A stretch of 63,947 bases of DNA, counting the filler, from Rhabdomonas costata (Eukaryota), in NCBI GenBank assembly GCA_019059605.1. It is 44 parts of 44 records of this genome, joined end to end, with 100 filler letters (N's around TTAATTAATTAA, not from the genome) between each part and the next. Parts side by side here need not be neighbours in the genome. Positions count along the whole stretch, not along the records: positions 18,920 to 20,275 come from JAHMHO010018373.1; positions 20,376 to 21,731 come from JAHMHO010018374.1; positions 21,832 to 23,188 come from JAHMHO010018375.1; positions 23,289 to 24,644 come from JAHMHO010018376.1; positions 24,745 to 26,100 come from JAHMHO010018377.1; positions 26,201 to 27,555 come from JAHMHO010018378.1; positions 27,656 to 29,011 come from JAHMHO010018379.1; positions 29,112 to 30,467 come from JAHMHO010018380.1; 36 more parts are not named here. One strand, written 5' to 3'. Below the pieces are notes generated by a model. That model searched no databases, had not been told where the DNA came from, and saw nothing but the letters and a program-made list of their open reading frames with translations. Made by a program: the position numbers and the translations under genes. Shown here in pieces: positions 14,262 to 51,257 of the stretch; the first letter of the stretch is position 1; each line of letters begins with the position of its first letter.

Positions 14262-14594
14262 ACAGCGGAGTGCAACAGAACCGAAACAGACGGGGTAAAA
14301 AAACGAATTGCGGTGATCTGGTGAATCTACAATCGGGGATTCTTAACCCTTCTCTGGTCAGAAACTTTGATAACATCAACCGCATGAATAATGCATCCCC
14401 ACCCACGTGGCTTTCCAAGCAGCATAAAGGAGAGGAAAACTAAAAACACACNNNNNNNNNNNNNNNNNNNNNNNNNNNNNNNNNNNNNNNNNNNNTTAAT
14501 TAATTAANNNNNNNNNNNNNNNNNNNNNNNNNNNNNNNNNNNNNNNNNNNNGGGACGGAGAATGGGGGAAGTGTGGGAGAAAGCGGAGTGGAGG

Positions 14595-18919: not shown

Positions 18920-19450
18920 CTGTCCACCGGAGGGGTGGGGAGCCGATGTTTGCCGTCGCCTGCACCCTGTTCACCGCAGAGCGCTTCACCTGGGAGCTCC
19001 AAACGGTAAGCCCGTTCTGTAGCGTGCAGCTGAGAGGCGTGCCAAAGAAAAGGAAAGAGAGTTGGGGGAGGTGTGCCGAGCGGTTGGATGGGATTTCCCC
19101 CCCGTTTTTGCGGAGACAACGGGAGCGTGGATCATCATATTGTATTGTCGTCAAGCACCCGCGCTTCGATTTCGCTGACCTGCACTTCCCGATACTCTTG
19201 GCAGCTTATCTCCTCGTTGCTGTTTCCGGGTACGACCATTTTCATCGTGGAGGTGGAGGCGGCGGCCCCGAATAAGCTGATCGCCAGCTCCAGCGACACC
19301 GACGCCTGGCTAGTGATAGAGAGGATGTCGTACATGTTCGACCACAACACCCCGCGGGGCAGATGGGCCGAGCTGCTGGAGCTGACCAGTGCCACCTCCC
19401 TGACTGGAGTGCCGGGGTACCTGCTCACGGCACAGTCGCTGACGTTGCAG
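18920..19450 (+). CDS. Cache-like extracellular sensor domain of a membrane receptor; exons 18920-19005 and 19205-19450
   Basis: GTAAGC donor and CTCTTGGCAG acceptor in phase 0; ...FTWELQT-LISSLLFPGTTIFIVEVEAAAPNKLIASS...GYLLTAQSL resembles the dCache FIVE..G.LIASS motif. Confidence 0.55.
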
Positions 19451-21856
19451 GTCTTCAGAAATCAGGGTGAAATTCTAACATTCCTTATCAGTGTTTTCTC
19501 GAACCCTTTATCCATCTGCGTACCAAGTTAATGCTTGGGTCGGGGCTGCTTAACTCATACAACGTGACACCCTTTTGAGGAGGACTCAATTCTTTGGTTT
19601 GTACCGAATACACAGCTGGCTTGCACCCGCGATTGTCCCTCCAAACTATTTTCGTATCTACCTCGCCCACGCTGCCTCGGCACGAGAATCATGATAATCT
19701 GTCTCATAGACCTGGAACTGATAGAAGAGGGGTTACATAGTCTTCTTGCGCGTGCACCTGCAGAATGCAGATGGCCAGTGATGCACCATTTTATCTTTGT
19801 GTTGCCATCAAACGGGTCAGGAGGTGATGCACGTTTCCCCTGGGATTTCAATGGAAGGGTTTCCCCAAGATGTCGGAGATCCTAGGTACTAATACACTTA
19901 CGGAATGAGTATCCTCGTGCGTGCGTAGCACTTTTAAACGGTCTGTGTAACAGGGGGGGGGGAGTGGCGGGCGTCGATATGCTACGCCCGTACATACACA
20001 TGCTTTCACCGCTTTCACCTTTTTCTCCCTTTCACCCCAGAAATGCGGTGGAAGGACGAATGGGTATGGACCGGATTCGGTGTTTGGTGGCGCGTTTCTT
20101 GCTGTCTGGAAGAGTATGGTGAACGGAGCTGGTGTGGTGGAGTTGGAGTTTCAGTGTTGGTGGTTCGCAGGAGTTGCCGCAGTTGCTGGAGTTAGAGTTG
20201 GTGGAGAGGTTACATTGTTGGTGTTACGTGGTTTTGGGTTTGCCTGAAGTTCCCCGGGTTTCCAAGTTGCAGAAANNNNNNNNNNNNNNNNNNNNNNNNN
20301 NNNNNNNNNNNNNNNNNNNTTAATTAATTAANNNNNNNNNNNNNNNNNNNNNNNNNNNNNNNNNNNNNNNNNNNNGGGTGTGGGTGTCTGTGTTGCGCAA
20401 ATTACCCCACTTCCGCAACACAGACACCTACACACACTTTTTGGCCAGCGGAAGATACGACAGCATGGCGTGGTCCAGCCAGCTGCTGTGGTTCGCCACC
20501 CACGTAGGCCGGGGGGCCATTGGTCGGACCACCGCTGGGACGAACCGGAGGCCACCCCCGCACCTCCACCTTCCCCCGCACGATGCCCACCAAGCGCATC
20601 ACCTCAATGACTCCACAGCCGAGTACCTTCGAATCGCACGGGCAGATTTCCTCATCTACTTACACGCACAGCGGCCTTTAGATTACGGTCAATTCCCCAT
20701 GCACACCACTTTACGGGCAGAAAGCACTGATTGATGATATGCCACCACATACCCGATATACGGGAGGGAAAGAGAGAAGGGGGATGCCATCCGGTCCGGG
20801 TCACCGTTGGGTTTGGGGAGCATAACGGACCATTTCGCGTACCGTACACTCAATTGATCCCTATCCCATCCTCAGTGCATTTCAGACTTAACATCAGTCA
20901 AGTGAGCAACGGAAAAGAGCTGGAACTGCAATAATGGCTTTCTTGTGAAGCGCAAGAGCAGGGTAGAGTAAAAGTTGAGACAACCGAATCCCAACAACTA
21001 CGGGGAATCAGTCCAGTTCATCGGTTCATCGGTTCATCGGTTAGCTCCAGTGTGCAAGGATTGTGTGCCCAAACTAACGGGGTGCAGGACGGTCAGACTC
21101 CCCGCTCTTCGGTGGGAATGTCTCTTTCAGGTGGACACCCCTTCGATGGATGCGCTTGTATTCTTTCACGAGCTGGGCCGCCCAACCACTGTCGTGCGAG
21201 TTGACCTCCTCACCATGGAGCTTCTGGGGAGGTATGCACAAGAGTGGATGCTGCGTGTTGAGCGCAACGTGATAACAGGTGAGCATTTTCTCAGATATTT
21301 GTGTGGCGTTCCGTGCTAATGTTGAAGCTGCAAGGACAGCAGCTGTATTAGGTGAACTGAATTGGTGAAGCATTTTCGCTGGGGCACATGGGCAAGGGAC
21401 GTTTCCCGTCGGGCGATCTGTGCCGCCCTTTTTCCGGTGGGACAGTGGAAGAAACGCTCATCTTGTTCAAAGACACAAGGTCTTTGTCGGAGGTGCATTC
21501 CCAACCCAATTCTGTTTAAACCCTTGTCTTCTTCCCAACTGTGCATATCTTCTGCAGTATGTTTGAAATTTTGCCCGATCATGTTCTCGCCGAAGTTGTG
21601 AACATGGCCGGAAGTTGTTTTGTTATGCTTTCTGGAGTACTGTGTTTCCAAAGTTGGAAGGAGCCATTCCTCTCTTCTGTGGTGTCGTCTTCATCGCTTA
21701 CCCTGTTTCGGCTTTGGAAACACACAACCACNNNNNNNNNNNNNNNNNNNNNNNNNNNNNNNNNNNNNNNNNNNNTTAATTAATTAANNNNNNNNNNNNN
21801 NNNNNNNNNNNNNNNNNNNNNNNNNNNNNNNGTGGGTTGTGAACGCTCTCTGACAG

Positions 21857-23127
21857 GCTGGTAACCTGAAGAAGCGCGAGCTGGACTTCATGACCAGCCA
21901 CTGCCTGCAGCTTTCCACGCCAATCAACGGGATCCTCGGCTTCACTCAGCTGCTGCGCGAGACTCCTCTGCTGCCCGACCAGCACAACTACCTGGACTCC
22001 ATCCACTCTGCCACAGAGTACCTCGTGAGCATCTCCTCCAACATGCTGGACCACAACAAGGTTTGCGTGTGTGTGTGTGTGCACGCCTCCGGGGGCTCAG
22101 CCGGGCTGCTTCCGTTTAAATGATGTCATTGAGCATCAGCATCATGACTGTCCTGTTGTACAGAAACTGCTGAACCGTCGTTGGTATCTGCGGGTTAATG
22201 ACCCGGTTGCAGCACCAGTGCCAGATTTCATCTGTTTAGCCCCTTCTCCGGCTCTACTGAAAGCAAGCTATCAAATTATCAACGTTTTATGAACCTCTCC
22301 ACCTCACTTTCCCTGCCAGCTGATATCCGATATTTGTAGGCTCTTGTCAGTGCTAGGAGCTTGAAATTAGTTTGCTTTGGCCGAGTTTGTGAGAGGTTGG
22401 TGTGATACTCTGTTACCCTGGAGGCCAATGTGTTCCTCTTCTAAAACTAGATCAAGATGGGCCTGTTTGAGCTGGAGAAGATCCCCTTCAACCTGGACTC
22501 CGTGATCGAGAGCGTGGTTCGAGACGCCGCCGGGGTGGCGATCCACAAGGGGGTGCGTGCCTGGCACCCCGCAACCTCCCGTCTTTCCTGCCTTTCCTTC
22601 TTCCCTTATTTCCCCTATAGCGCAATTGCTCCATTTCTTAAAGAACCTTGGTCACGCTCCACAACCCCTGCACCCGAAGGATGTACTCAGGGGCATCTCA
22701 ATAAGATGACTACTGTGATCTGCACCTTTTCTTTTCGTAATTCACTTCTTTTTGTTCTCAGACCGCCGCATGTAGCTCTTCCTCTCATTCTCCTCGTTCA
22801 ATTCGGTTAAACTTGTGCCCTCTTCCCCCTTCACGTCCGCACCCTGTCCACCCCATCCCATTTTTTCACATCTCTTGTTGCGCAGGGTGGCCTCTTCATG
22901 GACCATTTTCAGCTGAGGTTGTGTATGGAATGAAGACTGCTGTATTTTTTTTTTGCATTGTACTCACACTTCGCTTTAGCTTGCCCCACGCCCCCGTTCT
23001 CAGATTGACATCCACCTGTTCCTGCCCCCGGTTGAGGGCGGGCTGTGCCATGTCATCGGGGACCCCAAGCACATCCGGTTCCTCTTCTTCTCGTACACCT
23101 CCAACGCACTGAAGTTCACGCAGCAGC
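21857..23127 (+). CDS. Sensor histidine kinase-like protein (HisKA + start of HATPase_c) with degenerate H-box; exons 21857-22060, 22451-22552, 23004-~23127
   Basis: DFMTSHCLQLSTPINGILGFTQLL..., NMLDHNK-IKMGLFELEKIPFNL..., VIGDPKHIRFLFFSYTSNALKFT; all joins are phase-0 GT-AG. Confidence 0.9.
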
Positions 23128-23671
23128 ACGGGGGCGTGGGGCAAGCTAAAGCGAAGTGTGAGTACAATGCAAAAAAAAAACACAACAANNNNNNNNNNNN
23201 NNNNNNNNNNNNNNNNNNNNNNNNNNNNNNNNTTAATTAATTAANNNNNNNNNNNNNNNNNNNNNNNNNNNNNNNNNNNNNNNNNNNNGGGTGTTGGGAC
23301 ACCACAGTGCAAACAAGTGCGGCACAAGCGAAGCACGAAGGCCCGGAAGAGAACAGTGCAGTCTCGGACATTGCTAACAAGGAGCCGGCACAGGGCGGAA
23401 GGGACGACCACGACCTTGAAGCAGGACAAAGGGCGCGCAGGCTCGATACGAAACAACCGTTCTACAGGAGGAAACTTAAGTAAGCGTGTAGGTAGGGTTT
23501 CCGCGTATCATTGAGTGACACAAGCACGGGAATGAGGAAGAAAAGCGGTGGGATGAGGGGTCGCGGCGATGATGCTGAATGGTCAAACAACATCTAACAT
23601 CTATTCGGCCACACACTGCTGGCTCCGCTACCAAGAACCACTCTGTCCCCCCTCCTCACTTCCCAACAAAG

Positions 23672-23856
23672 GCTGCGTGGCTGGGCAGTGGTCCCTGCTG
23701 GGGTTCCACTTGCTTGCCGTGTTCATCACGTCGACGTACTCCTTCGTGGTGTCGATGCTGCTGTACAAGGCGGTGAACCTGTTTCTCCCCTTACGAGTCC
23801 CGGAGTGGAAAGAAGAGCTCGGGCTGGACCTCTCCCAGCACGGCGAGACAGTGATC
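23672..23856 (+). CDS. amt: Ammonium transporter (Amt/MEP family), exon with the last TM helix and C-terminal region
   Basis: TYSFVVSMLLYKAVNLFLPLRVPEWKEELGLDLSQHGE matches the Amt LRV..EE..GLD...HGE signature. Confidence 0.9.
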
Positions 23857-25124
23857 GTGTGTCACCGGGCCCCTCTCCGCCCCCCCCCCTACTCTCTCGC
23901 CTTACTCGGGGTGGGCATCTTGGGAAGGGGCACCGCTTTTATGATTAAAGGTTAAACGAACCTGCGAGGGGCCTGCAGTGACAGGCTTTGAATTTATTGC
24001 GGTGGCCGCTTATGTTTGTGGAACAAAACATCAAGGTGCCGCAAAGTTTACTTAAATGATCTTCCATAAAAAAAACTCCCTCCGCTTAACTGTTTTTGCA
24101 ATTTGAAGGCGACTCAACTGCCCACCCCACCCCTGGAAACGGGTTTTGTGGTATAAAAGTTATGAGAGCAGCTAGGATGTCTTGATCCGCGGAGTGCAGT
24201 GGAGCATCCTGGACCTGGACGTTTTCGAGAGCGCTTGTGGATATGTGCATCGCCTCCTTGCTCCATGTGAAAGCATCTCTTGGAATGTCAAGGGTATGGA
24301 AATTTGCTTGGCTTCCTAATCTCTGCCTTCCAGTCTAGTATTGGAATCCGAGAGGATATCTGCATTGCCCTCTCACCCCCGGAAATGTGCCCCTCCAAAA
24401 TACTTGACCCTAACTGTATACCTCGCTTAATTAACTTTTATCCATCCCGGTATCAGCCGGTCCAGCCTCTTCACCAATTCTTTCTTGCAGTTTTTTCGAC
24501 CATTACTGAGCATGGAAGAGCTCTATCGAAGGTGCACTGAGCTAAGTGGGAATCATAGAAATCAGATTTGGCAGCACCCAGAATACCCTGGGACTGGATT
24601 CGCGTGGATAATGCAGAGGATGATGAGCAATGAGAAGCACAAACNNNNNNNNNNNNNNNNNNNNNNNNNNNNNNNNNNNNNNNNNNNNTTAATTAATTAA
24701 NNNNNNNNNNNNNNNNNNNNNNNNNNNNNNNNNNNNNNNNNNNNTGTGGTGTTGGTGGGAGGGATAAAATGCTTCCTTGTTTGCCTGTTTCCGCCACTGA
24801 GAGGCTTCAGCCCCGACGCAGAACTTTATTCCCACTGTGCGTCCCGTCATCGACTCGCCATGCCGCCAAAGCCGGTGCCACAAAAGCCATCAGCACAACA
24901 GAGGTTGCAGGCCCGAGTGGCCTACAGCATCACTTCAATGGCCGATGGGCTTTTAACGAGGGATCGCATCATTTAGTATGGGTGTCAGAGAATCAGCTCC
25001 AGCGGAAGGAACTGATGCCGCAGGTTTCCTCCCGTTTTCGAGGGGAGGGGAGGGTGCCGTGGATGTGCGTGGCTGCCACCTTCCTAGTAATTTTCTTCCC
25101 CACTCCGTTGCCCTCCGTTTGTAG

Positions 25125-25366
25125 GGCTCTTCCCCGTCTTCTCAAACGCCCTCTGAGCGCTTCTCACACAACCCCTACTCCTATGAGGAGCTCACTCCAA
25201 CCACGGAAGCCCGCACCCGGTCCGCCTCCCAGCCCACCTCCGCACTTAACATTCCCACGGCGGGGGTGGTGCCGGGATCCTCGCTGAGGCAGCGCCGCGC
25301 TGCACGGAGCGGAAGCTGCAGCAGCTGCGCCAGCAGTGTGGGTAGCGCGGCCACCCCTCCAGCGAT
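25125..25366 (+). CDS. Ser/Pro-rich exon with an RFSHNPY motif
   Basis: TTTGTAG acceptor, ATG|GTGCGT donor, open frame GSSPSSQTPSERFSHNPYSYEELTP...PPAM. Confidence 0.55.
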
Positions 25367-26709
25367 GGTGCGTGTGCATATCCCCATTTTCCGATTCGAT
25401 TTTCATTCGCTGCCGAATTATTTGACTGGAGATTCGGGAGGTTATGCTTGCTGCTTCCCATCCATAACCGGTATCCGTTCTTGCGTTGTTGTTGTTTTTA
25501 GTTGGGTTGTTGGTGGGATTCGGGATTTTAGCAAGACCCTCCAATCAAATCGCGGTCCCTCGGGAGATTAGGTGGGAGGAAGGTGGACGGCGGAAGGTGC
25601 AGTTACACAGATGGGGAATTTATTGGGCAACGGATTGGGGTCTTTGGTGAAATACCCAAAATAGAAACCCACGTAGAATGAAGTCTGGTCTTTCATGGCC
25701 ACTGTTCGAAGGGGAAGCAGAACGTTTGAAAGTGATGATGATCGTTGCCACATGTTATAACATAGACCACGTGTCCCAGAAGGACTTGCACTGTGCTTGG
25801 AAAGACTGGGAGGCAGCACTCCACATCGGAAGCTGGATCGGATGCAGAACATTCATGAAACTGTGTTTTGGGTGGGCGGTGTATAGAGTTTCCGGGTAGG
25901 TCTGTGTTTCATATTTGTTGCGTTTTTGTTGTGAAGGACTGTTGAGGACAGAAGGTTGACGTTTTGACAGAGTCCTCTTTTCCCTTAGTTTTTGCTGCGG
26001 TGAGAAAGCAAGGGCAAAGAGGACTCTGTCAAAACGTCAACCTTCTGTCCTCAACAGTCCTTCACAACAAAAACGCAACAAATATGAAACACAAACCCCC
26101 NNNNNNNNNNNNNNNNNNNNNNNNNNNNNNNNNNNNNNNNNNNNTTAATTAATTAANNNNNNNNNNNNNNNNNNNNNNNNNNNNNNNNNNNNNNNNNNNN
26201 TTGTGGTTTGCACAGCAGTTCCACCGAAACGCTGTGGCCGGTCCTTGGGGTCAGAATTTTCTGTCCTTTCACCTTCGGCTGGTTGTGGTGCACCTTGGCA
26301 GCTGTTTCACAACCCTTTTGTGCCGCTTCTTGCCCGACTCAGCGGACGGTTTACGGTAGCACCCCACAACGTATTTACACAAGACCAATGCGGTCAGGCA
26401 ACCGGCTTGGCCGCCTGAAACCCACAAACATTTCTGTATCATCTCGTGCGTGATGCTGGTGGTGGTGGTGGTGGGGATCAGGGTCGTGCCGGCGGCTGCA
26501 TATCAATTGTTCTGGAGACGAAACAGCTCGGGAGGGGAACCTATGGAAAAAATCGACATCCCACAATCGCAGTCTCCTTTGAACCAGATTAGCCTTTATT
26601 TAGATTCTACATCGTTTTTCCCAAGTGGCAGATGCTCTTTCCTTTACGGGAGCAAAACCCTCAACCCAACGGTGCTCGCACCACGATCGACAGGAAGCCA
26701 AAAAAACAC

Positions 26710-27315
26710 CGGTATCTCAGGAAGGTCACGGCCTGGTTGTGGGGTCCACCACCAGCGGCCACTTTCCCGCACGAGCCAGCTGCCGTGTGGTATCCTTCCA
26801 CAGCCCATCCACAAGGTCCTCCAGCGCCAAGTTTATTCCCGGGCGAGTGGGCCCAGAAGAGTGGGCTCCAGCACCCCCACCCTGGTCTGCCCCAGACTTA
26901 GCCTCCCGAAGTTCCGTCCGAAGCAGAACCAATGCCTCCCTGTATCAATCGAAAAAATCCAACTGCGGCATGCACACCTCTTCCCTCGGATAGGGGCCAC
27001 TGATTCATCGGTCTGCTGATGGGTATGTCGCTCGGGTTCACCTTACCAGTGACAGCCTGGAAACCCTTCAGGGAACCCTTCTTTATGAGATGGCAAAGGC
27101 AAAGTGCACCAGCCAACAAGCCGATGACATCATGCATGTGTTCTTATTTCTTTTTGTTTGGTAGTTGAGTTTCAACCCACACACACCGACAGTGCGGTGA
27201 GGGTGGGTGTCAGCCTTACCTGGCCTCGTCTGCCTTCTCCTTGGCCTTCTGCAACTCTGCCTCGGCGTCCTTGACGTATTTAAGGGCAGTCTCGGCGAGC
27301 TCCTTGCGGCCATCC
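26710..27315 (-). CDS. IQANK1: IQ motif and ankyrin repeat protein 1 homologue (C-terminal part); exons 27315-27220 and 26939-26710, with a 1-nt frameshift at ~26737
   Basis: ...YVKDAEAELQKAKEKADEA-R-EALVLLRTELRE...DGLWKDTTRQLARAGKWPLVVDPT/NQAVTFLRYR matches IQANK1 KDVG..I...GRWPLVIDP.GQAATFLRY. Confidence 0.75.
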
Positions 27316-27962
27316 CTGGACGTCAAGTAAGAACTTCTGTGACTGTTTGCTAGTCTGAGGTACGTCGAAATTTGCTTCAAGACCCAGGAGTAGCGTGAGT
27401 TTAAAAATGGGTTATGAAATCTGGCGAGGCAAGTTTTTCGGAGTGAAAAGGCACTCCATCAGAGGGAACTGCTAAGTTGTAGGTAGGAAGCAGTATGTAG
27501 TTCATGGTTTCCCGTAGTTAGGTTCCTATTAAGCCGCCAAGGTCTTCCCAACAAANNNNNNNNNNNNNNNNNNNNNNNNNNNNNNNNNNNNNNNNNNNNT
27601 TAATTAATTAANNNNNNNNNNNNNNNNNNNNNNNNNNNNNNNNNNNNNNNNNNNNGTGGTGGGTGTGTTTGGTGGTGTTTTTTGTTACGCTGTGGTTAGG
27701 ACGTCCTTCTGCGTTTCTCAAGGTTGTCTGTTTTTTTTGGAAGTCGTTTACTGAAATGTGTAGCTTGCTCAGGTTTGCGGTTTATGTGTTTTATGCCAGT
27801 TGCAAAGCGCTGCTGGAGGCCAGATCTTGTGTTTTTTGCTAACCGCGTCAAAGGAATAGCAATGGTTAGTAATTTGGAGGTGGGCTGGCGAGTCTGCCAT
27901 CTCTCGTTGGGCATCAACCAAGAGATGGCTTCTTGTTTTTCCTTCTTCCTGTCTCCCTCCAG

Positions 27963-28432
27963 GCCCCGTCCAGTATGAGGGAACCTCGCCTCCTCGCTCA
28001 ACTTTTCATCGCTGTCGTTCCTGGTTCCATTCGTCCGTTGAGTTTTGTCCCCGTCTTTAAAGGATTTAGCTATTTGTGTTCCATCCCTGCTCTTTCTGGA
28101 TTGGGCTGGTATGGTGTCTTTTTCACAACCGTGATCAAGTGGGTCGGTGAAAAGCAAGTTTCCGAGCACGGATGTCTAGAATGCTCACAACGTCCTGGGC
28201 TGTCCGCCTGCTCCTACGCTCATTCACAATGCAGGCGTTGGTTCTCGTTTCACAGTGTGAACGAGTCGTCTCCATCATTGCAACCATCGTGCTGGTACCG
28301 CTAAAGCGGTCATATGGTATGTCAGGCTGTGTGTGCCGTGCGCTTGGCTGTACTTTTCTGCAGTAATCGCCGTTGGGTGGGTTGCCCCATATGCTTTTTG
28401 TTCTATACCCTGCGTTTGTAGCTTGATTTCAG
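27963..28432 (+). CDS. Unknown polytopic membrane protein with very short introns (28024-28062, 28139-28179, 28317-28363)
   Basis: Successive GT-AG pairs restore one stop-free hydrophobic frame; final GTAAGA donor. Confidence 0.45.
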
Positions 28433-29756: not shown

Positions 29757-30226
29757 CATCGAACTCCCGCTTTTTGTGCGAGAGGTAGGGGTCGGGGGTC
29801 CTGGGGTGGTCTGGGCCCCGGCAGGACCGCGGCACCAGGGCGATGTAGTTGGCATAGCCCACGGTGTTCTTGCCCTTCGCGATTTGCTTCAGCCGCTGCT
29901 CCACGCGGTGGCGATCCTCCTCGAGATCTCTTACAATGGAAAAGATCCACAAACATACAAGTACACTGAGAAGGCGAGAAAGAAAGTTTCAGCATTGGTC
30001 CCTCGTCTGCTCTGGGACCTCATCCCAAATGCACTGTCCTATGTCTGTATTATGAGCCTGGGGACTCTTTCTCAAATGCGTTTCGGGAGGGGGGAAATAC
30101 TTCTTTACCCTCTGCCTGCCCCACACACAACCTCCTGTAATACATCAGATACCTCCGCTGCTTGGTGTTAGGCTGATTTGCAGAAGCCCCCGCAGAGGGG
30201 GGCTGGTCAGGCAACCTCCTCTGAAC
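29757..30226 (-). CDS. SLBP: Histone stem-loop binding protein RNA-binding domain; exons 30226-30153 and 29929-29757
   Basis: EEDRHRVEQRLKQIAKGKNTVGYANYIALVPR...HPRTPDP...KREFDG matches the SLBP RRQKQI.YGKNT..Y..Y...VP....HP.TP...RR.WD signature. Confidence 0.88.
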
Positions 30227-32578
30227 CTGCCGAAAAAGATAGAATTGAGGAGATTCAGGAAGCCGCGAAAAGCGCCACTGTCAGCAGTATCCCTCCCACT
30301 TTCAAAAATGCATATGTTGATCACCGCGCCGAGTCCCGAAGCAGAAGTCATAAAAGTCCCAAACACATCAATTATCCGCCCAGAGCGGAAGCTCTCAGAT
30401 GGAAAAACATCTGCAACCCCCTCCCTCCCTCTCTCCCTCCCTTCCAACGAAGCCGCCATTCCACGCGNNNNNNNNNNNNNNNNNNNNNNNNNNNNNNNNN
30501 NNNNNNNNNNNTTAATTAATTAANNNNNNNNNNNNNNNNNNNNNNNNNNNNNNNNNNNNNNNNNNNNCGTTGAGTTATCCACACCTCCGGCTGTCTGTGG
30601 GTTTTTTTTACCCCATTTTGACATTCTGGTGCACCGAATTTGCCACAAGCTTGCGTCCTTGCTACCAGCAAAATGACGCATTTCTTCTTTCTTGCCCAGA
30701 GCGCGACCAGGCTATCAGGATGCACCGTGCCAAGGTACTTGCTCGGAAATCCTTCCTCCTCCCCTCCTTTTCCACTCTCTCGATCCACCAACGAATCGGG
30801 GGAAACCAGTCGTACTCGAATGGTGGGCACCTGAACAATGTCTCCGATCGTTGCATTTGAATAGTATCTCCGATTGAGCGGTTTGTGCTTCAGACAGCGG
30901 AAATTCTCCGCCATCCTCCACCCGTTTATCATGGCTGTATGCGTGGCTGCCAGTCATCGCAGTGTCGTGGTGCACGACTTGCTTTTGGCTGTGTGTGTTG
31001 ACCACCCACATTGTGTGCATCTTCTGCGGTGGGGTCTCGAGAATAAGGTACCTGGAAATCGCCGGGTCTGCATTGGTTTTACAGGTACATGGCACCCTCC
31101 CAATGACTTCCCAGAGGGACTCGCTCAACCCAAGCCCCGCCGTTCTACGCAGCCCACCGCCTAAACCAAACAGAAATCGAAGTGCTAGCACTAGATTCAG
31201 AAGATCTCCCTTCCCACGACAATTTTCACAGGATCCAAAGGAAAAGTGCCGTTGGGTCCCAGATGCAAGCCTAGCTGCACCCCGAAATCGAGAACCGAGT
31301 CCGTAACGTTTCGAACTGAATTCTTTTTGGCGTGTTTTTGTGCCGCTAGGCTTGGGTAGCACATGGCGTCTCTTGGTGCAGACGCAAGGTTGTAAACTCT
31401 CGATTTACGGTGTTGCCTGCTATAGCTTCCCTATGCTGTTGCTCCACCAGCAGAGCTTCCTTGCCAGATTAAGTGCGTCGGGAACGTTTCTTTTGAATGT
31501 CCTGGGCGCTTGTTTGTTTGAGCCCGAATGTCTTGGGCGTTTTCTCTTGATTAGGTGGATCAGGAAGTTTCTGAGCTCCGAAAAGAGATGTCCGCAGCAG
31601 GCGCAAGCACGGCGTAGAGAACTGGCCCCAGATCTGGGAATTGACCTTGACAAGGGTGTTGTGAACACAGCGAAGAACTGCAGCGCTGTATTTGCCTCTA
31701 CGCACAGGCTTCTCAGAGTGAACTTGGCTGTTCTTTCTTTTTGCTTTTCCGGAAATCCTTCCTCCTCCCCTCCTTTTCCACTCTCTCGATCCACCAACGA
31801 ATCGGGGGAAACCAGTCGTACTCGAATGGTGGGCACATGAACAATGTCTCCGATCGTTGCATTTGAATAGTATCTCCGATTGAGCGGTTTGTGCTTCAGA
31901 CAGCGGAAATTCTCAACACCCCCNNNNNNNNNNNNNNNNNNNNNNNNNNNNNNNNNNNNNNNNNNNNTTAATTAATTAANNNNNNNNNNNNNNNNNNNNN
32001 NNNNNNNNNNNNNNNNNNNNNNNGTTGGGGTAGGTCGTCCTCGTGCCGGAGGTAATCATCTGGCCTCCGGTAAGCAAAATGGTGTTGTTCCTGAGTGCGA
32101 GAGAGTGGGTCATTGAGCGTCATGCTACGAGGAAAGAGCAGTGAAGCCTGAAGATAGCCCGAAGCTTCGATATTTTTCGGGACGGGACAATTGTATTGGA
32201 CGGGGGAGGGGGCTTACACGTTCCGTATCGCTAAACGTTTAGCAGTTCTAAACATTTTTGGCTTTTGTGGATTCTTTTTTTTTTTTGGAATTGTCGCTGC
32301 TTTTTAATTTTCTTTAACAAAATTGCGCATCGCTGCTGGGCTTTGGCAGGCACATGGGACAAATTTATTTTGGAGCCAGCGCCGCGGAGGGGGCTGATGG
32401 ATTGGGACGTTCCATGGGGTGGGAGAATGCTCGGTTTAGCACTGCTAAACTTTTAGGTTGTCGTTTTGGCTGCATTTTGGGCAAGCGCCCTCTCCAGTTC
32501 TTTACTACTGTTCCGGGTTAAGGCGCAGTACGCCGAACCACTGAAAAGCCACAGGAGGCATTCAAAGGTCACACACAC

Positions 32579-32697
32579 AGCAGAAACAGTACATGCACAC
32601 CAAACCACAGAAGACCAGTACGACGTCGTGGTCCATTGATAGTTAAGCCAGCTGTATCCATTGGTTTCGTCGTACAGAAGCACCTGGGGAAGGCTCC
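32579..32697 (-). CDS. Isolated aromatic-rich exon of an unknown, probably extracellular, protein
   Basis: TTTTTCTTTCAG acceptor; SLPQVLLYDETNGYSWLNYQWTTTSYWSSV then GT; 3' bound approximate. Confidence 0.35.
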
Positions 32698-33479
32698 CTG
32701 AAAGAAAAAAGCAAAGTAAAAAGCCAACAGCAGAAACACATTCGTGCTGAATCGGCCGTGGTACCACACCCAGCGAGCAAGGGCCAGAAAAAGCAAACTT
32801 CACTGTGGAGTTTTGGTGCACAAAAAGTGTTTTGCTTCAAAAAGACACTGTGCTCGTCGTTGGCAAAACACATTCCCGTGGCTGCTTTTCAGTCTTCTCC
32901 CTCCTCCAACCCTACAACAACGTTTTTTGGAACAACCATTTGTTTTGTAACCTTGTTCTACAAGCAAATTGCAAGCTTGAGTGCTCCCCCACCACATACC
33001 GTAAACCAAGACTATAGTGTAAAACCACAACAAACAATAAATTGACCCAGCGTTTGTCAGGCCGGTCGTTTCCTCCTGAAAGAGAGAACCCCAATAGTGG
33101 ACATTTAGCCCGTATGGCGAGCTTGGCGTCGAGGCAACTCGCTCCTCCTTCCAAAACGAATGGAGTCCATGTTCGAGCAAAGCAAGTCAGGCAAGAGTTT
33201 CATCCCCCCAGCTCCTATATGGCGCATGTCCTGCTGGGAAGGATTCCGATGGCTATGAAAGGCATTCATGAAGAAATCAGAGAACTGCGACGAAGAGCGA
33301 GTCCGTACGTGCTCTTTCAGTTGGAAGCTGGAAAAAACCATATCCAAACGTATGCGGACCCAAGCGTACCAACAAACACNNNNNNNNNNNNNNNNNNNNN
33401 NNNNNNNNNNNNNNNNNNNNNNNTTAATTAATTAANNNNNNNNNNNNNNNNNNNNNNNNNNNNNNNNNNNNNNNNNNNN

Positions 33480-34785
33480 TCGCCAGCACGCCAACGTCCG
33501 CAGACATCCAGCGGATGAAGCTCAGCGTGGCGTTCAGTGCGGCACATCCCGCGGGGGTGCTCCACAAGTCCTTCCGGACGACAAAGGTGGAGAAGCCGAC
33601 GATGGGATAACTTTTCTCCCCGGCAGTGTCAAGGATGTCTAAAAGAGGATATTCCGAAAAGAATTCACATGAAAAAAGCGGAGATGACTGCCGGGCAAAG
33701 CGTCGTGGCGACGGCAGAGAAGAAACACAGGCGAATGGGAAAATCCTTGCGCAGCGCCTTCATCGCGTCAAGCTTCCGGATGTTCAGAACCAACAAAGCG
33801 AACACCAAATCAGAACAATGAACAGGTAAAGCGGCAGCTTCCTTCTCGCTCTGCGGCGCAGACGCACAACAACGCATGTGCTCGACACAACCATATGGAA
33901 AGGGGGGGGGGGTGGAGGAAACAGGAATTGAGGGTCACACCGCTCTGAAAGTGGTTGTCAAAGGTGGCCTGGCCTGCTGCATCCTCCACGGCCTCCAGCG
34001 AAGGCACGACAAAATTGCTACAAGCAGAGAGACCAGAGGGGGAAGCATCGCAGCCCTCTCTATGAGCTAATAAATATACCCCGAACCGTCCCTGCGCTGG
34101 TCCAGCCAAGCGCACGCCGAAAAAAGGAAAGTTGGGTCGCAGAGTCAAGCTGTTAGTAGCTTCTTATGCAGAAATCGTAGAAATATTGAAACAGCATACT
34201 TTCACCGCACAGGATTCCTCGCGCCGATAATCGCATTGAGGTTAGCAGGCGCGAAAGAGAACTATAATCTTGTCTCATGTAATACATCATTCCCGACCAC
34301 AGAAAAACCGACCATCACTTCCACCTTTCAGACAAGTGCACAAGGCATCCAGAAAGGACTCAAAGCTGAATGATGGGATCCACACCCTTTCTTGTTGGGA
34401 ATGGCAATCATCGGCAGGGAGCGTGCCACCGCAGTGGCCCGGGGCACAAAGGCCATGGCGTACGGTGTGGTCTGGCGGCAAAATACAGCGGCAGAAAATG
34501 GCAGCAATTCAAACAGTGGGATTGCAAAGCCAACTCCTTTGCTGCTCTCTTAACACCCTTGACTTTGTGCCCCAATGCGCCCCCCCCAGAAAATCTCTGA
34601 GCCCCAAAAAGAAGCGCGTGGGTCTTTCACGTTTTCAACTGGCCCATTGGAAGTTGGGGGGGGGGTAACCGTTACCACTCCCCTATCCAAACTTCCGTTG
34701 CACCCGATTACTGCATGGAAAACTTCACCAGACACCGCTCTTGATCGCACCTGCACCGCAGTGCACAGCGAGGGCTCAATGGAAC
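33480..34785 (-). CDS. PstS-like periplasmic-binding-protein type 2 domain; exons ~34785-34673, 34471-34386, 34017-33941, 33638-33480
   Basis: Spliced TTPYAMAFVPRATAVARSLPMIAIPNKK-G-NFVVPSLEAVEDAAGQATFDNHFQS-D-ILDTAGEKSYPIVGFSTFVVRKD...LSFIRW matches PstS (TPGAIGYVE..LKNKAGNFV.P...PG..AYPI...FL.W); all phases fit. Confidence 0.82.
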
Positions 34786-34946
34786 TGGGGGTACCCTTCC
34801 TCGCAACACCTACTCCTTGTTTTGAGTGACAAAANNNNNNNNNNNNNNNNNNNNNNNNNNNNNNNNNNNNNNNNNNNNTTAATTAATTAANNNNNNNNNN
34901 NNNNNNNNNNNNNNNNNNNNNNNNNNNNNNNNNNTCGCTATCCTAG

Positions 34947-35209
34947 TGGCGGATATTCGGCAGCAGGCGGAGGTCACCAGTGCCCAGGCCGACCACAGCT
35001 TCCACACTGGGGTCATCGCCTCGGTGTCGATTGCCATGGGGATCCTGTCCTTTGCCGTGCTTAGCGCTGTGGTGTTCAGCCTGGCCATCACCCGCCCCCT
35101 GCAGGCCCTTGCGGCGTATCTGGAGAGGGTGTCTCGGATGGACGTCGCGATGGACATGGGTCTGGACCCGGAGCAGCTCTCCTGGCTGCGGGAGATCCGC
35201 CAGATGCAG
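34947..35209 (+). CDS. Transmembrane helix + HAMP linker exon of a membrane receptor (cyclase- or kinase-type)
   Basis: Hydrophobic helix followed by ITRPLQALAAYLERVSRMD...SWLREIRQMQ; AG/GT bounded. Confidence 0.8.
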
Positions 35210-37107
35210 GTGATGGTGACAAGTAGTTATGTAGTGGACTGGGTCGTCAAGCTTGGAATCATTTGGTCAGGGGTGAGCTTCCCGATGGCATGATGAGCGG
35301 AAAGATGAGACGAGTTCCCAGCTTGGCCTCCCCGATACATCCCTTCAATAGCCATAGCGCTTGGCTTGTTAGGTTACATATTTCTGGAGGTGTTTTTGTC
35401 GCTTACCTGTTGAGGTCGCCCCAATGTGTTCACTTGCTTGGGATACCGGTGATTTATTTCTGTGTGCGGTTTTTCCTCTCCCTGCGTGTTTTTGTTCTTT
35501 TCCCGACAGCAAAGTTTCGGGACCACAGTCAAGAATCTGATCGAGCTGAGAAAGTACGTCTGTTTGCGCGCTCGGGGCAGGGAGGGAGGCACACTCCCAG
35601 CTGCGTAGAACACGCTGGACCATCACTCAAATCATCACAGCGGTCAACTCGAAAGGACGCCAGTCCGTCCACACAAATCAGTGTGGGAGAGGTTTTCTGC
35701 GAGCGAGCGCATAGAATGCATTTTGCTTTTTCCGGAATAATGTGACGTTTCAGCGTTAAGTAAATTTGGGGAGGTAAGCGAGAATTGTGCCGGAAACGAA
35801 AATATACAGAAATGGCCGAGTACGGTTAAAAGAGTCTATTCGAGTGGTCCGTCCCCCCTCCAAGTGGAGCAGGGTGCCCCCGAGGGTGGCCTATTACAAA
35901 CCCAAAAGTCTGGCACGCACAAGGTTGGAAACATCACCACGAGAGGAGACGCCCCCAAACACACAACTGGTATTTCAAATGAGCACCCGAAGGGAAGAGT
36001 GCCGTGTTCCCAAACCACAACAAAACAGCGCACCATTAAACAGCGACGGCGTTTTTTTTTTCGCCCGCTTGAAGCTGGGTGTTGTTTTCAGTGCAGGGCG
36101 CTGGGGGTACCGAAGAGCCTCTTAAATGCTCTGCGATTGCTCAGAGGGGCAGTAGAATGAAGCTGAGGCAAGAAGATCACCGAGAGACAGAGAAAGCTGT
36201 GCGAAGGTTCTCGGTGATCTTCTTGCCTCAGCTTCATTCTACTGCCCCTCTGAGCAATCGCAGAGCATTTAAGAGGCTCTTCGGCACCCNNNNNNNNNNN
36301 NNNNNNNNNNNNNNNNNNNNNNNNNNNNNNNNNTTAATTAATTAANNNNNNNNNNNNNNNNNNNNNNNNNNNNNNNNNNNNNNNNNNNNGTGGGGTGGGG
36401 AAGGAAATCGATGGAACACCTTTCGCCAAGGCTTGGAAAAATGCAACAAGGCGAGGCCAAAAATGTATAAATGCGCCAAAATGCTCAAGCCAAAAATTTT
36501 AGAGTCGAACAAAATGCGGGGTTTGCAAACAGGAGGCCTCTACACCTCTGCATTTTGTTGGGGTTAAGCGGAGTCGGCTTGGTGATGATGATTTGACAGT
36601 GGATTCGCACGTTCCCCTCTTTTCCCACAATACTCGCACATTTACATCTCTCTTTCTATGTGTTCCGGAACCCCACCACCACCACCTTCGAGCTGCACAT
36701 GTAATCTACCGTGGCACTGGGCCCCAGAATGGTGGTACGAATGTTTAATTTTATGTTAAAAATATATCGGGGGCTTTATTTTGCAAAACATCTAAATCTC
36801 TCTAACGCGGTGCAAAGTGCTTGCGGCTGCTGAAGATAGGGGTCCACTGCACTCCACATCACCCCTGGCCGGTCTGCGGTTCGGGTTTTCTGTCCTTTTC
36901 TTTTCATTTTGCATCGACATTGGGGGTCCAAACAGGTTCAAAAGTTTGATTTTTTTCTTCATGGTTAAATCAAGAGTTATGCCGTGTGTCCACACGATCA
37001 GGATCCCTCCTACCAATGAATGTGGCCGTTCTTCGTTCTTGCCCTGCCGTTATCCTTTGGTTCTTTCCTCTCCCCCTGCCCTCCCCCGCTCTTTGTAAAT
37101 TATTTAC

Positions 37108-37526
37108 CTGGCTGTGTCGGAAGATTGTGCAACCTTCTCTCGACGGGTGATGCAAGAATAGATTAGAGGCGAGACAAACGCGAAGTGGGTCATGTAGCCG
37201 GCGTCAGGGACTCCCCCGCAGACCACGGTGATGAAGCTCGCACCAAAGATTGGCATGACGGTGACGATCCGTGTCGGGACCACAACGCTGCAGGTTTTGC
37301 TGTACCAAATGAAGGCGGCAACGACGGGAAAAGTGCCGGCGAGAAAGTTTTTCAAGGCTGCCCAGGGCATACCGCTGGCGACATTGAGAAACGACATTGA
37401 GAAAAGGACCGCCGCCCAAAAGAACGAGCATAATTGCACACGCTTCTGTCGGACGACTTCCTCGCCGTCAGTGTCAAGTACACCGACAATCAGATACCTG
37501 TCAACAATGACTCGCAGTTTTTTCAT
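37108..37526 (-). CDS. First exon of a polytopic membrane protein resembling the multi-TM anchor of bacterial-type class III adenylate cyclases
   Basis: ATG; VGVLDTDGEEVVRQKRV followed by ~4-5 TM segments and CGGVPDAG...FVSPL; GTAAAT donor. Confidence 0.5.
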
Positions 37527-38103
37527 GGCGTAAAGAGACCAAAACTGGGAAAATGAACACGCATTCTGTGTTACACCGCACCAAACAACGCATGATATCA
37601 GCGTTTGGGAAGTCATTCGGATCATTCTCTTTGGATCTCTCTCTCCTCGACACCGAAGTGGCCCAAGCTGAATTCCAAAAAGGAAAAAGCAGATCAAACA
37701 AAGAGTGGGCCGAGCAGCTACACGCTTCCCAAGTTCCTTGGGACNNNNNNNNNNNNNNNNNNNNNNNNNNNNNNNNNNNNNNNNNNNNTTAATTAATTAA
37801 NNNNNNNNNNNNNNNNNNNNNNNNNNNNNNNNNNNNNNNNNNNNTGTTTGGGTGGGTTTTTTGGATTGACGAGATCGGCAACAATTTGTTCCCGCTCTTA
37901 TCCCCTTTTTTCGCCCAAATTGTTGCCGATCTCGTCAATCCAAAAAAACGACCTTAGAAAGGGACCCTGCACCGATTCACTTTTTCTGGAAACAAAATGC
38001 ATGCGAACTTTGCTGAACAGAGCAGAAGAGGCATCACGGGAGAAGCGAAAAAGGCCACACAGAGATGGTAAATCACATTGACGAGGGAAGGGAAAGCAAA
38101 GGA

Positions 38104-38543
38104 CCTCAACTCTGTCAGGATCCGAGGCCTTCGAGGGTGGAGAACGAGGTGGTGACTGAGAAGGCGGCGGCAGGCGCTGTGTGGTGGTGGTGTGCGGTGG
38201 TGGCGCCTGTCAACGTCCCAGTGAAAAATTCAAGGCGTCTCTTCAGGGAAGGACACTCTCTTTCCCAAAGTTCGGAGAACCGACGCAGGAATCAAATGCA
38301 ATCCAAAATGGAACCCACCGTTAATTGAGGTGAAGCAAAAATGCTCCAAATACCCCAAAAAATTTTCATTTTCATTCAAAACAACCAAAATCACGCTGCG
38401 GAAGGCAGCCTTTGCAGACACACACGCACCTCAGTGTGCGCTGGAGGAGCAGGCTTGGGCTCAGGTGGAGCATGCGAAGGGAGCGGAGGGGAGCCCTGTG
38501 GAGGACCGTTGCGGTCCAGTGAGGAAGCGGGAGGCCGGTAGAC
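38104..38543 (-). CDS. Two exons of a Pro-rich low-complexity protein
   Basis: VYRPPASS...PPAHTE|GTGCGT and ACAG|APPPHTTTT...DPDRVE|GT; bounds approximate. Confidence 0.45.
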
Positions 38544-40761
38544 CTCCACACGGGAGGGATGGAGGCAAACACAGCCCATTCAGTATGTCAAAGCCAAAGA
38601 TGTCAAAGCGCAGAAGATAAACATCCGCGAGTGCTGAAAACTGTCGCAAAGCGGGACGGGTAGGGGACGAGAATGCGTGCCCGCAGTTGAAGAGCAAGCA
38701 ACCGACTGCTTTCAACAGCATCGCAACAGCGTGTCATGTGGACGCAACGAATTAAAACGACAACAACAAACGTTGGGTTACAGCAAAAGAGCAAAAAAAA
38801 AGCACGTCATAAGCCGGTCCTTTATTTTGGTCCACCCTCTTCACCAATGCTTGCCATCTTTTCCAGGGTTCTGGAATGGCTCAGAGGGTGTGAAACGTGC
38901 TATTTTGTGAATTTAAAATACCAAGGAACCACCTGAGTTCAGGCTCACTACATGCCAATATTTCACCATTCCCTTGAATATCTGGAAATTTTTACGCAAA
39001 TACATGCCCAGACATGCTAGGGCACGCGATGGGCATGGCATCTCAGGCACCTCCCTGGGAGCAGACACATTATGCCACCTATCATTCCAAGTGTTTTGAT
39101 TGGCGAGCAACGAGGGCTCAGCGGAAATAACTGATCCCACAGATCCCGCAACAACCCACTGCGAAAGAGCTGCCTGTGGCCGCATCCACACAGCCAAAGN
39201 NNNNNNNNNNNNNNNNNNNNNNNNNNNNNNNNNNNNNNNNNNNTTAATTAATTAANNNNNNNNNNNNNNNNNNNNNNNNNNNNNNNNNNNNNNNNNNNNG
39301 GTTTTGGCGTACTTTTCCCGAAGGTTTTTGTTTTTCTGCACATACCCAATTCTTTCACGGTAGAGGAACAAATAACGCAAAAAAGAGAGAGGTGCCCATG
39401 TCGAAAGAAAACCTCTGCTATTAGGTGTTAGAGCACGGTCTCCCTGATCTACTCTGGTTTTTTACCATTTGATTTCCATTTTTGTTCATCACAGTTGTTT
39501 GTTCCAGTTTATTCTCTTTTCAAATAAACACTGGAATGAAACTTTCACCGGTATGGAATCACAGTTCACACTGTAATTTCAACACAGGAAGATCGAAAGA
39601 ATGAGGAGGGACCAACAGGAAAGAAGAGCAAGCCGCCTGATTCCGAGATGTCAGTTGGCGGTTGGGATTTTGGAAGCTGAAAGGTGTAAAATAAATCCAT
39701 GAGGAAATTTACATGTAAAGCATTATAAAACTCTCAGAAGCGTAAAAGCTTTGATGGATATTGATTCTAAAGCCTGATGATTAATTTGAAAAACACGGCA
39801 GGAAATTTCCGCCCAATTTCAGCGGTAGACTTGCATTTTAATAAACCTAAAGACAGTCAGTGGAAAACACACAATACGGCAATGTAACGCAAGGGAACTC
39901 GAACGTCACTGCGCAGCACGAGGGTGAGGATAAGAAAAAGCCTGTCAAAAGAACTGTTTTATGTCAAAGGCAGTGGGTTGTCCAGCCACAATTTGGCCCA
40001 CAAGATGGATGAGGTAAGATTGAGCGAGATCGGCCATAAAATTCGACGGGAGTGGAGGAAAATGGGACTTGTCAAGGGGCACAACAGGAAAGAGGATTTC
40101 GTGGGGAAAAGATGTAAGCGAAATCGATAGAATTTTGGTAGAAACTGTGTGTGTGGAAGGCACGACCTGATCCAAAAGGGGTTTTTGTGTGGCAGACGTT
40201 ACTGCGTAAAAAGGGCGTTTCAAGGGAATGCACAAAGGACTGAGGCATCATTGGGATATGAGATGCAGACTTAGCAGAGCTTGATACTGAGTTCTGTGTT
40301 CTGAGCGGCCACAACATTATGCCGATTCGCCAACTCCTCGGAGGTGGACTTGATTGCATCCGCCTAACAACCTTGCGCTTCACACTTCTTCTTGCGGACT
40401 CCGCCGCTTGCTGGGACTAATTCGTTGGTGGGCGTCTTTTGCCTCACCGCCTCGTTTTGCCAAACTCGGAGGGAAACGTGGGGTAAAATTGGTCCGCCTA
40501 CTGCGCGTTCAATGCTACTCTTTCGCCGAAATGTCCTCGTAACTCCCTTCTCTTTGGATTTCAAATGGAGCGGCGTCACAACCAAAGAATCCCACCACAC
40601 AACGTCTACCACAAACAAACCACAACAGCAACCATTATGTGACACAACCCCACCCNNNNNNNNNNNNNNNNNNNNNNNNNNNNNNNNNNNNNNNNNNNNT
40701 TAATTAATTAANNNNNNNNNNNNNNNNNNNNNNNNNNNNNNNNNNNNNNNNNNNNGTTTTT

Positions 40762-42080
40762 GGGGCCAGGGTGCTGGCCAGCTGGAACACCACAACCCGG
40801 GTGTGCAAATTAGGGTTGTGTTTGCGTGTGGGTGTCGTGAGGCTATGCCCTGCCCCGCCTTTGTCTTTTTCATATCCAGGCCTCTCCTTGTGCAGTCCAG
40901 CGCAGACATCATTATCGCACTCCGTACTCCCCGTGAGGTCTCAACGGTACGAGTCTGACATGGGGCTTTCTCTGTGCGGGAACGTGAGAACCTGTTGCCC
41001 CGCAGTTGATGTGAAACACATTTTTGAACTTTAAGTGACTCGGGCATTGGCCTGGCATGCACAAGAGGGATACCGAGATGGGCAGTCCGCAGCCCACAAC
41101 TGGGTTGTCTAGTTCAGGGTGCATTCTGCACTTCCTGGAATTTCTGGGTGGTTTCAGTGGCATCATTCTTTCGCAACCCCCACGGATTAGGTCGCCTCAC
41201 ACTGCCAGAACGCGTGCAAGGCCGCCCTCCAGATCCTGAACCGCTTCCGCAGCTCTCCTCCGGAGAGTGGGCAAACCTCACGACCCTCCATCCACACCAC
41301 GGACACCGTCCCGGTGGACTCTATTATGGAGCGACCCACGCACTCCCACCTGCTGCACGCCGCGCTGTGCGGGGGGGAAGTGGTGTGTGGAAACATGGGC
41401 AGCGCCACCCTGCAGACGTTTACCGTCTTGGGGCCTGCGGTGGGGGCAGCATTCCGCTTGAATGCCCTCAACAAAGGTTGTTTTCAAAGGAGGAGGGGGG
41501 CTATGAAATGCCTTTGTCTATGGGGCTGATTTGTTGACGTCTACTGTACTTGTAAACGTATTGCATTTGTTGGCTTACAACCACTCCTGCCCTTGTTATG
41601 CTTGCACTTGCGCAGCTCCCAGCAAAGTGTCTTTTCCAATGCCCTGCCTGCCGTGCCCCGCCTTTTCTTCCCCTTTTTGTTGTTATGCCGCTATTCGACG
41701 CATGACGTTGGCCACCGTGCCCCTTCAAGAGCCTGTAATGTTATGAGCTCTCTCCAGCAGTGTGTACGGCGACACGAAAGCACAAGAGCGCAGTGGGATC
41801 TAGAGTAAACACGCTTACAGACGTCCAGTGTCCGGCACAAAAAACCTCATCAAGGCAAGGCAAGCCGGAAGGGAAGAATCGAAACGGATGTACGTGCGGT
41901 ATGAGGTGGAGAAATTGGAGAAGGAGATTCTAGCGGGCTCTTGTACGGATGTTTAAGATAAGCGATGTCCGATGGTTTGTTTCGTTTTTTGCAGTGCTGG
42001 GCACTCGGGCGCTCGCGGACGCGTCTGTGCGGCAGAGCGCGCAGTTCACGTTCCAGTTCCGAGTGGTGGACCGCATCCAG
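40762..42080 (+). CDS. Class III nucleotidyl (adenylate/guanylate) cyclase homology domain, degenerate; exons 40762-40800, 41191-41476, 41995-~42080
   Basis: GARVLASWN..-VASHCQNACKAAL...HAALCGGEVVCGNMGSATLQTFTVLGPAVGAAFRLNALNK-V-LGTRALAD...FRVVDRIQ; phases fit. Confidence 0.88.
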
Positions 42081-51104: not shown

Positions 51105-51257
51105 GTTACAGACAAGGTGGTGTTCAGCGGGTCTCGGGATGGCTCCGTGAGAATGTGGGAGTGGGACTCTGGCCGTCCGCTGCGAGTGCTGACGGGGCAC
51201 TCTGGGCCCGTGGTGGCAATGACCACCATGGTGGCACCAGCCGTCTTGCAAGGCCAG
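51105..51257 (+). CDS. WD40-repeat protein exon; probable GC donor
   Basis: VFSGSRDGSVRMWEWDSGRPLRVLTGHSGPVVAM; ends CAG|GCATGT followed by pyrimidine-rich intron. Confidence 0.85.

Follow-up and report, generated by a model that had tools for sequence, protein, structure and literature searches.

Receptor gene fragments of the euglenid Rhabdomonas costata point to a conserved, under-detected clade of degenerate class III cyclases

The 63,947-nucleotide stretch of Rhabdomonas costata DNA analysed here (the window) carries fragments of six receptor-type genes, among them exons of a class III nucleotide cyclase whose relatives include a conserved clade of degenerate cyclase domains. Members of this clade nearly always keep the second metal-binding aspartate of the active site and lack the asparagine and arginine with which a canonical cyclase completes the site of its partner. 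Judged by these residues, between one-third and one-half of the cyclase domains found here are predicted to be unable to form a complete site alone and miss the Pfam cut-off. We tentatively interpret the six fragments as unlinked pieces drawn from an extensive set of euglenid receptors that join sensors to cyclase or kinase outputs; the degenerate domains of this set would act as half-cyclases.

The receptor expansion as such is already known. In Euglena gracilis, class III nucleotide cyclase (NCIII) families with transmembrane (TM), HAMP, Cache 1 and NIT domains are expanded, alongside a REC/HATPase family (Ebenezer et al. 2019; PMC6366073), and the supplement of that paper records 147 NCIII, 28 HAMP, 23 HATPase and 135 REC domain hits, with periplasmic binding protein type 2 as a further listed column. 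There, as here, the TM, HAMP, Cache 1 and NIT parts are joined to one cyclase domain; in contrast, the parts of that paper examined contain neither catalytic-residue scoring nor inactive members, and R. costata adds another euglenid with a degenerate clade that falls under the Pfam cut-off. What may matter is this conserved, under-detected clade rather than the repertoire itself. No description of it was found in the literature searched, subscription papers lying outside the search, and euglenids are not mentioned in the parts of PMC6944256 consulted. Published euglenozoan cyclase counts may both miss the degenerate clade and overstate catalytic capacity. The clade also offers a testable model of how flagellates route many sensory inputs into cyclic AMP (cAMP), and it sets the regulatory paralogues of trypanosomatids against a free-living background.

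Residues, selection and ancestry of the degenerate clade

Class III cyclases build each active site from two subunits, one supplying two aspartates (Asp1 and Asp2) and the other a lysine, an asparagine and an arginine. The source assembly (G000; 97 Mb in 104,289 length-sorted contigs, among which the window contigs are neighbours) holds 314 candidates for the PF00211 cyclase domain. Pfam matched 144 of the 150 that were scored, 164 never having been scored, and those read are mostly intact; with divergent domains as seeds, searches of the same assembly yielded 19, 71 and 69 matches. The N-x-x-x-R site was read by local hidden Markov models and motif search in 96 frames, which reduce to 82 distinct reads at <94% nucleotide identity, 40 of them intact and 42 incomplete. 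Two loci scored as degenerate, L293 and L300, were dropped because they seem to read through an intron, as the next exon on L293 indicates. Asn and/or Arg is missing in 40 of the resulting 80 distinct motifs, a search-biased set, and 37 of these 40 motifs lack both residues, with Arg mostly giving way to non-basic residues such as Ala and Val. Among 66 exons with the clade signature, Asp2 is kept in 64 and the purine-site Lys in 34; the first metal site is acidic in 27 of the 27 motifs found (Asp in 20, Glu in 7), a count that required an otherwise canonical motif.

The degenerate domains are under purifying selection, since the median pairwise ratio of nonsynonymous to synonymous substitution rates (dN/dS) is 0.13 (55 pairs), 0.11 (21 pairs) and 0.41 (28 pairs) in three subfamilies. 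In a quick tree of 62 rows, 22 degenerate rows group together on long branches with a Shimodaira-Hasegawa-like approximate likelihood ratio (SH-aLRT) support of 93, and three incomplete rows (L057, L059 and P0113) fall outside the group. A single origin of the clade appears likely from this grouping.

Full-length relatives and fold

Five full-length proteins show the domain plan of the clade. P0042 (R. costata) and P0048 (Entosiphon) share a hemerythrin-TM-TM-cyclase plan, P0144 and P0104 (both Entosiphon) carry a NIT and a CHASE sensor, respectively, and P0007 (Papus) has a TM-ectodomain-TM-HAMP plan. Each has one cyclase domain, placed behind TM helices and lacking both Asn and Arg. All five lie under the Pfam cut-off of 21.9 bits: P0042 scores 21.0 and P0048 14.6, and P0144, P0104 and P0007 give no match. 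A C-terminal 'EWMY' segment is common to the five and to P0127. A profile of the clade (A3) matches bacterial cyclases with an E-value of 1e-15, its other best matches being bacterial dCache/CHASE2 cyclases with intact motifs. The P0144 domain model, with a predicted local distance difference test (pLDDT) score of 93, adopts the ferredoxin-like cyclase fold, matching class III cyclases in Foldseek (1.6e-10) and CyaC with a TM-score of 0.74. By these profile and model matches, the degenerate domains are of the class III type. Their conservation extends over euglenids and to an early-branching kinetoplastid.

P0042, whose genomic locus is L109 (G000:C3013), and P0048 are candidate oxygen or iron sensors coupled to a cyclase without Asn and Arg. 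Long intron-poor receptor cyclase frames also occur in the assembly, at L116/L228 (G000:C437), L041, L243 and L274 (G000:C476).

Comparison with known cyclases

Bacterial dCache/CHASE2-HAMP cyclases act as homodimers with two sites. Those of the CyaB/CyaC type (PDB 1wc0, 3r5g) are the closest matches to the degenerate clade in both sequence and fold, and share with it a common TM-sensor-TM-HAMP-cyclase plan. Unlike the clade, the bacterial matches nearly all keep N-x-x-x-R, with 11 of the 175 motifs read deviating, several of which are eukaryotic or misread.

A second likeness is to heterodimeric cyclases. In soluble guanylyl cyclase, the alpha subunit keeps the metal-binding Asp residues and depends on its partner to complete the site. 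Mammalian adenylyl cyclase C1 likewise keeps the metal-binding Asp residues and needs a partner half-site, following the C1/C2 division of labour in class III cyclases (PMC6027212). The mammalian enzyme, however, holds C1 and C2 in one chain, whereas the five full-length relatives have one domain each: a complementary second cyclase domain is absent from P0042, P0048, P0144, P0104 and P0007. The cyclase gene in the window is itself a fragment.

Trypanosomatid receptor adenylate cyclases likewise form a large receptor family in Euglenozoa, and exons of the trypanosome type are present, and intact, in G000. They differ in cyclase subtype and ectodomain; moreover, they offer one regulatory paralogue, Leishmania rac-B1, a negative regulator of rac-A (cited in PMC4413820), against a clade of dozens here.

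Proposed mechanism and its alternatives

The degenerate domains would resemble a free-standing C1, keeping metal-binding acidic residues and dropping Asn and Arg. Because each site combines the two Asp of one subunit with the Lys, Asn and Arg of the other, two degenerate domains would form no complete site between them, whereas pairing with an intact subunit would yield one. Signalling through active/inactive heterodimers, as suggested in the original prediction, fits this residue pattern, and we cautiously prefer the reading that a degenerate domain contributes to cAMP synthesis only when paired with an intact cyclase subunit, the degenerate domain taking the 'C1-like' place in the dimer. A ligand at a Cache-like, NIT, CHASE, hemerythrin or PstS-like sensor would then act through the TM and HAMP segments to tune the partner cyclase up or down, and many sensors could thereby feed fewer catalytic subunits.

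Several points weigh against this proposal. Firstly, HAMP receptors are usually homodimers. Secondly, neither a complementary family (Asp lost, Asn/Arg kept) nor a dedicated C2-like partner family was seen among the cyclases read, and most of the intact cyclases read belong to other subtypes, trypanosome-like or of a 'DxWG' type. Intact bacterial-type cyclases on C437, C4010 and C392 are candidate partners. Thirdly, Asp1 is not universal in the full-length relatives (Arg in P0104, Asn in P0007), its count among exons presupposes an otherwise canonical motif, and both Asp are missing from two heterolobosean-like rows. Finally, the data sets themselves call for caution: the census is search-biased and leaves out ~35 Pfam matches that span the motif, the degenerate share falling to ~35% if all of these are intact; the tree is a quick search in which long branches meet; and the alignment behind the P0144 model held many canonical cyclases.

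Alternatively, the degenerate domains might be homodimeric non-catalytic outputs that bind metal-nucleotide through the retained acidic residues, or dock a protein effector, without making cAMP; this reading is a close rival, though somewhat less likely. It shares with the half-cyclase reading the residue pattern and the purifying selection, and it gains from the unseen complementary family, from the new conserved motifs that replace N-x-x-x-R together with the common C-terminal segment, and from relatives in which both Asp are gone; by analogy, degenerate GGDEF/EAL domains in bacteria signal without catalysis. However, the near-invariant Asp2 and the frequent Lys (34/66) are expected of a catalytic half-site, and no effector is known for a non-catalytic output.

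It is quite improbable that the domains are active homodimeric cyclases of altered chemistry or substrate, with other residues standing in for Asn and Arg. In its favour, both metal sites and often Lys are kept, the modelled domain retains an intact fold, and some bacterial class III cyclases, such as Rv1900c, work without Asn. Yet Arg, which greatly enhances cyclase activity (PMC6027212), is missing together with Asn from 37 of the 40 degenerate motifs. Least probable is that the incomplete domains are decaying duplicates or assembly artefacts and the six-contig cluster a lucky draw from an ordinary-sized family: the frameshifted TM-anchor copy in the window, the loss in the window cyclase of an Asp that close paralogues keep, and the lower rate in independent samples (6-8/100) would agree with it, but the dN/dS values (0.11-0.41), spliced contigs, intact full-length relatives in three genera and the Pfam matches among 150 candidates scored each (144 for the cyclase, 95 for HisKA) do not, so that decay is unlikely for the degenerate clade and largely refuted there.

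The half-cyclase proposal could also be carried further, to a version that we consider speculative and unlikely: in Euglenozoa, single-domain 'half-cyclase' receptors might number in the hundreds and form an ancient class invisible to Pfam. Each would be an exchangeable sensor subunit that brings the metal-binding half-site to a shared catalytic partner, giving a combinatorial cAMP code in place of G-protein-coupled receptor signalling.

The cyclase and histidine kinase of the window

The window cyclase gives no Pfam (PF00211) match, and no full-length protein was found for its gene; the closest full-length relative of its exon is P0144 (E 1e-12). A class III-like cyclase, in line with the original prediction, is borne out by the profile, the fold and the GT..AG joints in X4, a data set whose library type is not on record and which was used solely as a source of intron-skipping contigs; such skipping was seen for the kinase and the cyclase contigs. 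The first Asp site lies off the contig. The X4 piece covering 40761-40799 differs at 3 of 39 bases and may come from a paralogue. With Asp2 lost and Arg kept, this cyclase is an outlier within its family.

The histidine kinase predicted beside it is confirmed by the Pfam HisKA match (7e-11), by one X4 contig that joins all three kinase exons with the introns skipped, and by the R. costata protein P0001, to which the kinase exon is 99% identical and in which HisKA and HATPase_c both exceed the Pfam cut-off. In the alignment, the phospho-His column of the window kinase holds Leu, inside an unspliced exon. An intron at this H-box, where a CAG occurs, was ruled out; the His-to-Leu change is real, because the X4 contig and P0001 read through the box unbroken. 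P0001 has also lost the G2 box (GxGLG) of the ATP lid, keeping the N box Asn and the G1 motif DxGxG, and is predicted to be a pseudo-kinase. Three of the four kinase matches in G000 are distant, and the assembly holds no close P0001 paralogue.

By hydropathy, five TM helices, perhaps six, lie N-terminal to HisKA in P0001. Profile search found no family match for this block (residues 55-240), which is reminiscent of the anchor with six TM helices in adenylyl cyclases and CqsS-type kinases. Among pseudo-histidine kinases, Caulobacter DivL and the plant subfamily II ethylene receptors are comparable in having the HisKA/HATPase fold without the phospho-His. Unlike DivL and the ethylene receptors, P0001 has a 5-6 TM anchor and no receiver domain in its record; its best match is to BarA/GacS-type kinases, the match to DivL being weak.

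Among the kinase loci read in the assembly, catalytic residues are mostly kept. G000 contains 197 HisKA candidates, with 95 Pfam matches among 150 scored; of these 95 matches, 50 were fetched. His is kept in 27 of the 29 H-boxes readable within one exon among all loci fetched, a count that left out seven intron-split reads and one non-kinase read. For HATPase (158 candidates, all 41 scored being Pfam matches), the G1 and G2 boxes could both be read at 26 of 30 loci and are complete at all 26; because Pfam is biased towards canonical copies, some rare pseudo-kinases may have escaped the count. The window kinase is thus an outlier within its family, and the idea of a pseudoenzyme-rich network holds for the cyclases (40/80 motifs incomplete) but fails for the kinases. 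The companion claim that both inspectable catalytic domains lack key residues stands for the kinase (Leu for His, G2 lost) and for the cyclase, which has Gly for Asn and Ala for Asp2 and retains Arg. Introns within the H-box, after His-Glu or Thr-Pro, occur in two kinase subfamilies (L060-L072 and L016-L027) and can mimic His loss in six-frame reads.

Sensor and anchor fragments

All six fragments are parts of multi-copy or expressed receptor-type genes. Pfam, run on 29 pieces of the window, recognised only the HisKA exon among them, and outside that exon identities had to come via paralogues. Canonical splice sites border exons on all six contigs, in keeping with the view that they are nuclear and intron-bearing; a contaminant origin was ruled out by these sites, by host-like GC contents of 0.49-0.56 and by a euglenid protein match. 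Support differs by fragment: the kinase, cyclase and TM-HAMP assignments are well supported, the anchor is MASE-like, the PstS assignment is weak and the Cache assignment is unproven.

The TM-HAMP exon matches bacterial dCache cyclases in profile comparison (hhalign probability 94.8, E 5e-8), which upholds the original assignment, and the same comparison shows a TM helix followed by a P-containing HAMP helix pair. Pfam HAMP is sub-threshold in this family (E>=0.11 in 5 of 14 members). On C2322, a related exon lies upstream of a degenerate cyclase.

The multi-TM exon belongs to a real family, in which it is followed by a cyclase-like start on C1009, C4807 and C416. Although the family has no Pfam MASE match, its paralogue L165 has Atlas feature scores of 0.94-0.97, with cluster members annotated MASE11 (61%) and MASE7 (15%), and the resemblance to bacterial MASE7/MASE11 sensors is suggested by these Atlas features only. 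The anchor had been predicted as such, but DNA alignment shows a 7-nt deletion, a compensating 1-nt insertion and an early stop in the window copy, which is probably decaying.

The PstS-like and Cache-like predictions are only partly sustained. Paralogues of the PstS-like exon run on to a TM helix, and TIGR00975 (PstS) matches two of the five family exons scanned, at E 2e-4 (paralogue L149) and 0.025; the window exon itself, however, has no TIGR00975 match and matches PstS in PDB weakly (E 0.51), the phosphate-binding residues lying outside the window contig. A trypanosome-type cyclase as the output of this family was considered and rejected, since degenerate domains are also preceded by the linker helix in question. 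For the Cache-like exon, placement fits: on C6635 a paralogous exon runs on to a TM helix, HAMP and then a pre-cyclase helix. Proof did not come from Atlas (0.88), from comparison with Cache profiles (hhalign E 0.41 and 0.08) or from a fold model of low confidence (pLDDT 45), and the exon has no Pfam match.

Size of the receptor repertoire

The abundance of receptor parts was estimated from independent contigs picked by number only, 40 matching those of the window in length and 60 of ~5 kb. Parts with a supporting test occur on 1 of the 40 (L208) and 5 of the 60 (L318, L341, L343, L350 and L357); L176 and L205 resemble receptor N-termini by eye but failed in pairwise tests, and they count only in the upper figure. 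Prevalence is thus 6-8 per 100 (95% interval 3.5-15% for 8), with incomplete detection of divergent exons, against 6 of 44 in the window. The prevalence of ~14% originally drawn from the window is compatible with the independent contigs (8/100 vs 6/44, Fisher p 0.36) but probably high. If gene spans of 5-8 kb are assumed, extrapolation gives ~630-820 receptor genes (range 200-1,900) and ~580 cyclase domains (120-1,700), figures that allelic duplicates would inflate; even so, the range agrees with the prediction of a very large mix-and-match receptor repertoire. Of the three contigs in the independent samples that bear a cyclase, one is degenerate.

Four kinase or cyclase contigs in G000 are intronless and low in GC (L005, L006 and L076, GC 0.36-0.43; L048, GC 0.24); they look foreign and are probably not host nuclear DNA, and they stay in the counts.

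Features and further exons of the window

Table 1. Receptor features on six contigs of the window. Numbers of G000 matches include the window exon itself and are lower bounds on family size.
Feature	Position	Strand	Contig	Evidence
Cache-like extracellular sensor, exon 1	18922..19005	+	G000:C18373	GT donor 19006; paralogues L155-L157
Cache-like sensor, exon 2	19205..19450	+	G000:C18373	9 G000 matches
HisKA exon, predicted 5-6 TM pseudo-histidine kinase	21857..22060	+	G000:C18375	Pfam 7.4e-11; 4 G000 matches
Kinase exon 2, DHp-CA linker	22451..22552	+		X4 contig, GT..AG joint; P0001 match
Kinase exon 3, N box of HATPase	23004..23135	+		X4 contig; P0001 match
PstS-like binding domain, C-terminal part, single-pass receptor	33481..33638	-	G000:C18383	14 G000 matches
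TM helix and HAMP-like segment	34937..35209	+	G000:C18384	19 G000 matches
MASE-like multi-TM sensor/anchor, frameshifted truncated copy	37107..37526	-	G000:C18385	12 G000 matches
Cyclase exon, second metal-Asp site, here Ala	40762..40800	+	G000:C18388	Paralogues C18308 and C27557 keep Asp; 3 G000 matches
Cyclase exon, N-x-x-x-R site (Asn to Gly, Arg kept)	41191..41476	+	G000:C18388	
Cyclase exon after catalytic helix	41995..42080	+	G000:C18388	GT..AG joint in X4; translation

The window consists of 44 unlinked contigs of ~1,355 bases each, joined by N-spacer-N blocks, and other contigs carry further coding exons. Two GC3-rich exons without a known family, at 4972-5346 (+) and 153-593 (-), score neither with Pfam nor with the local receptor profiles; by eye, the former has a TM helix and then a HAMP-like start. 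Pfam identifies the C-terminal exon of an ammonium transporter at 23653-23853 (+; 1.5e-11), as well as exons for an hnRNP-Q acidic domain at 14001-14342 (-), an SLBP RNA-binding domain at 29845-29988 (-), WD40 at 51018-51353 (+), PCMT at 55847-56302 (-), kinesin at 57667-58128 (+) and a lysine methyltransferase at 60762-61037 (+). Repeated frames in the list of open reading frames reveal an internal duplication within one contig (30568-31923) and, in the terminal part of the TM-HAMP contig, an inverted repeat (36088-36289).

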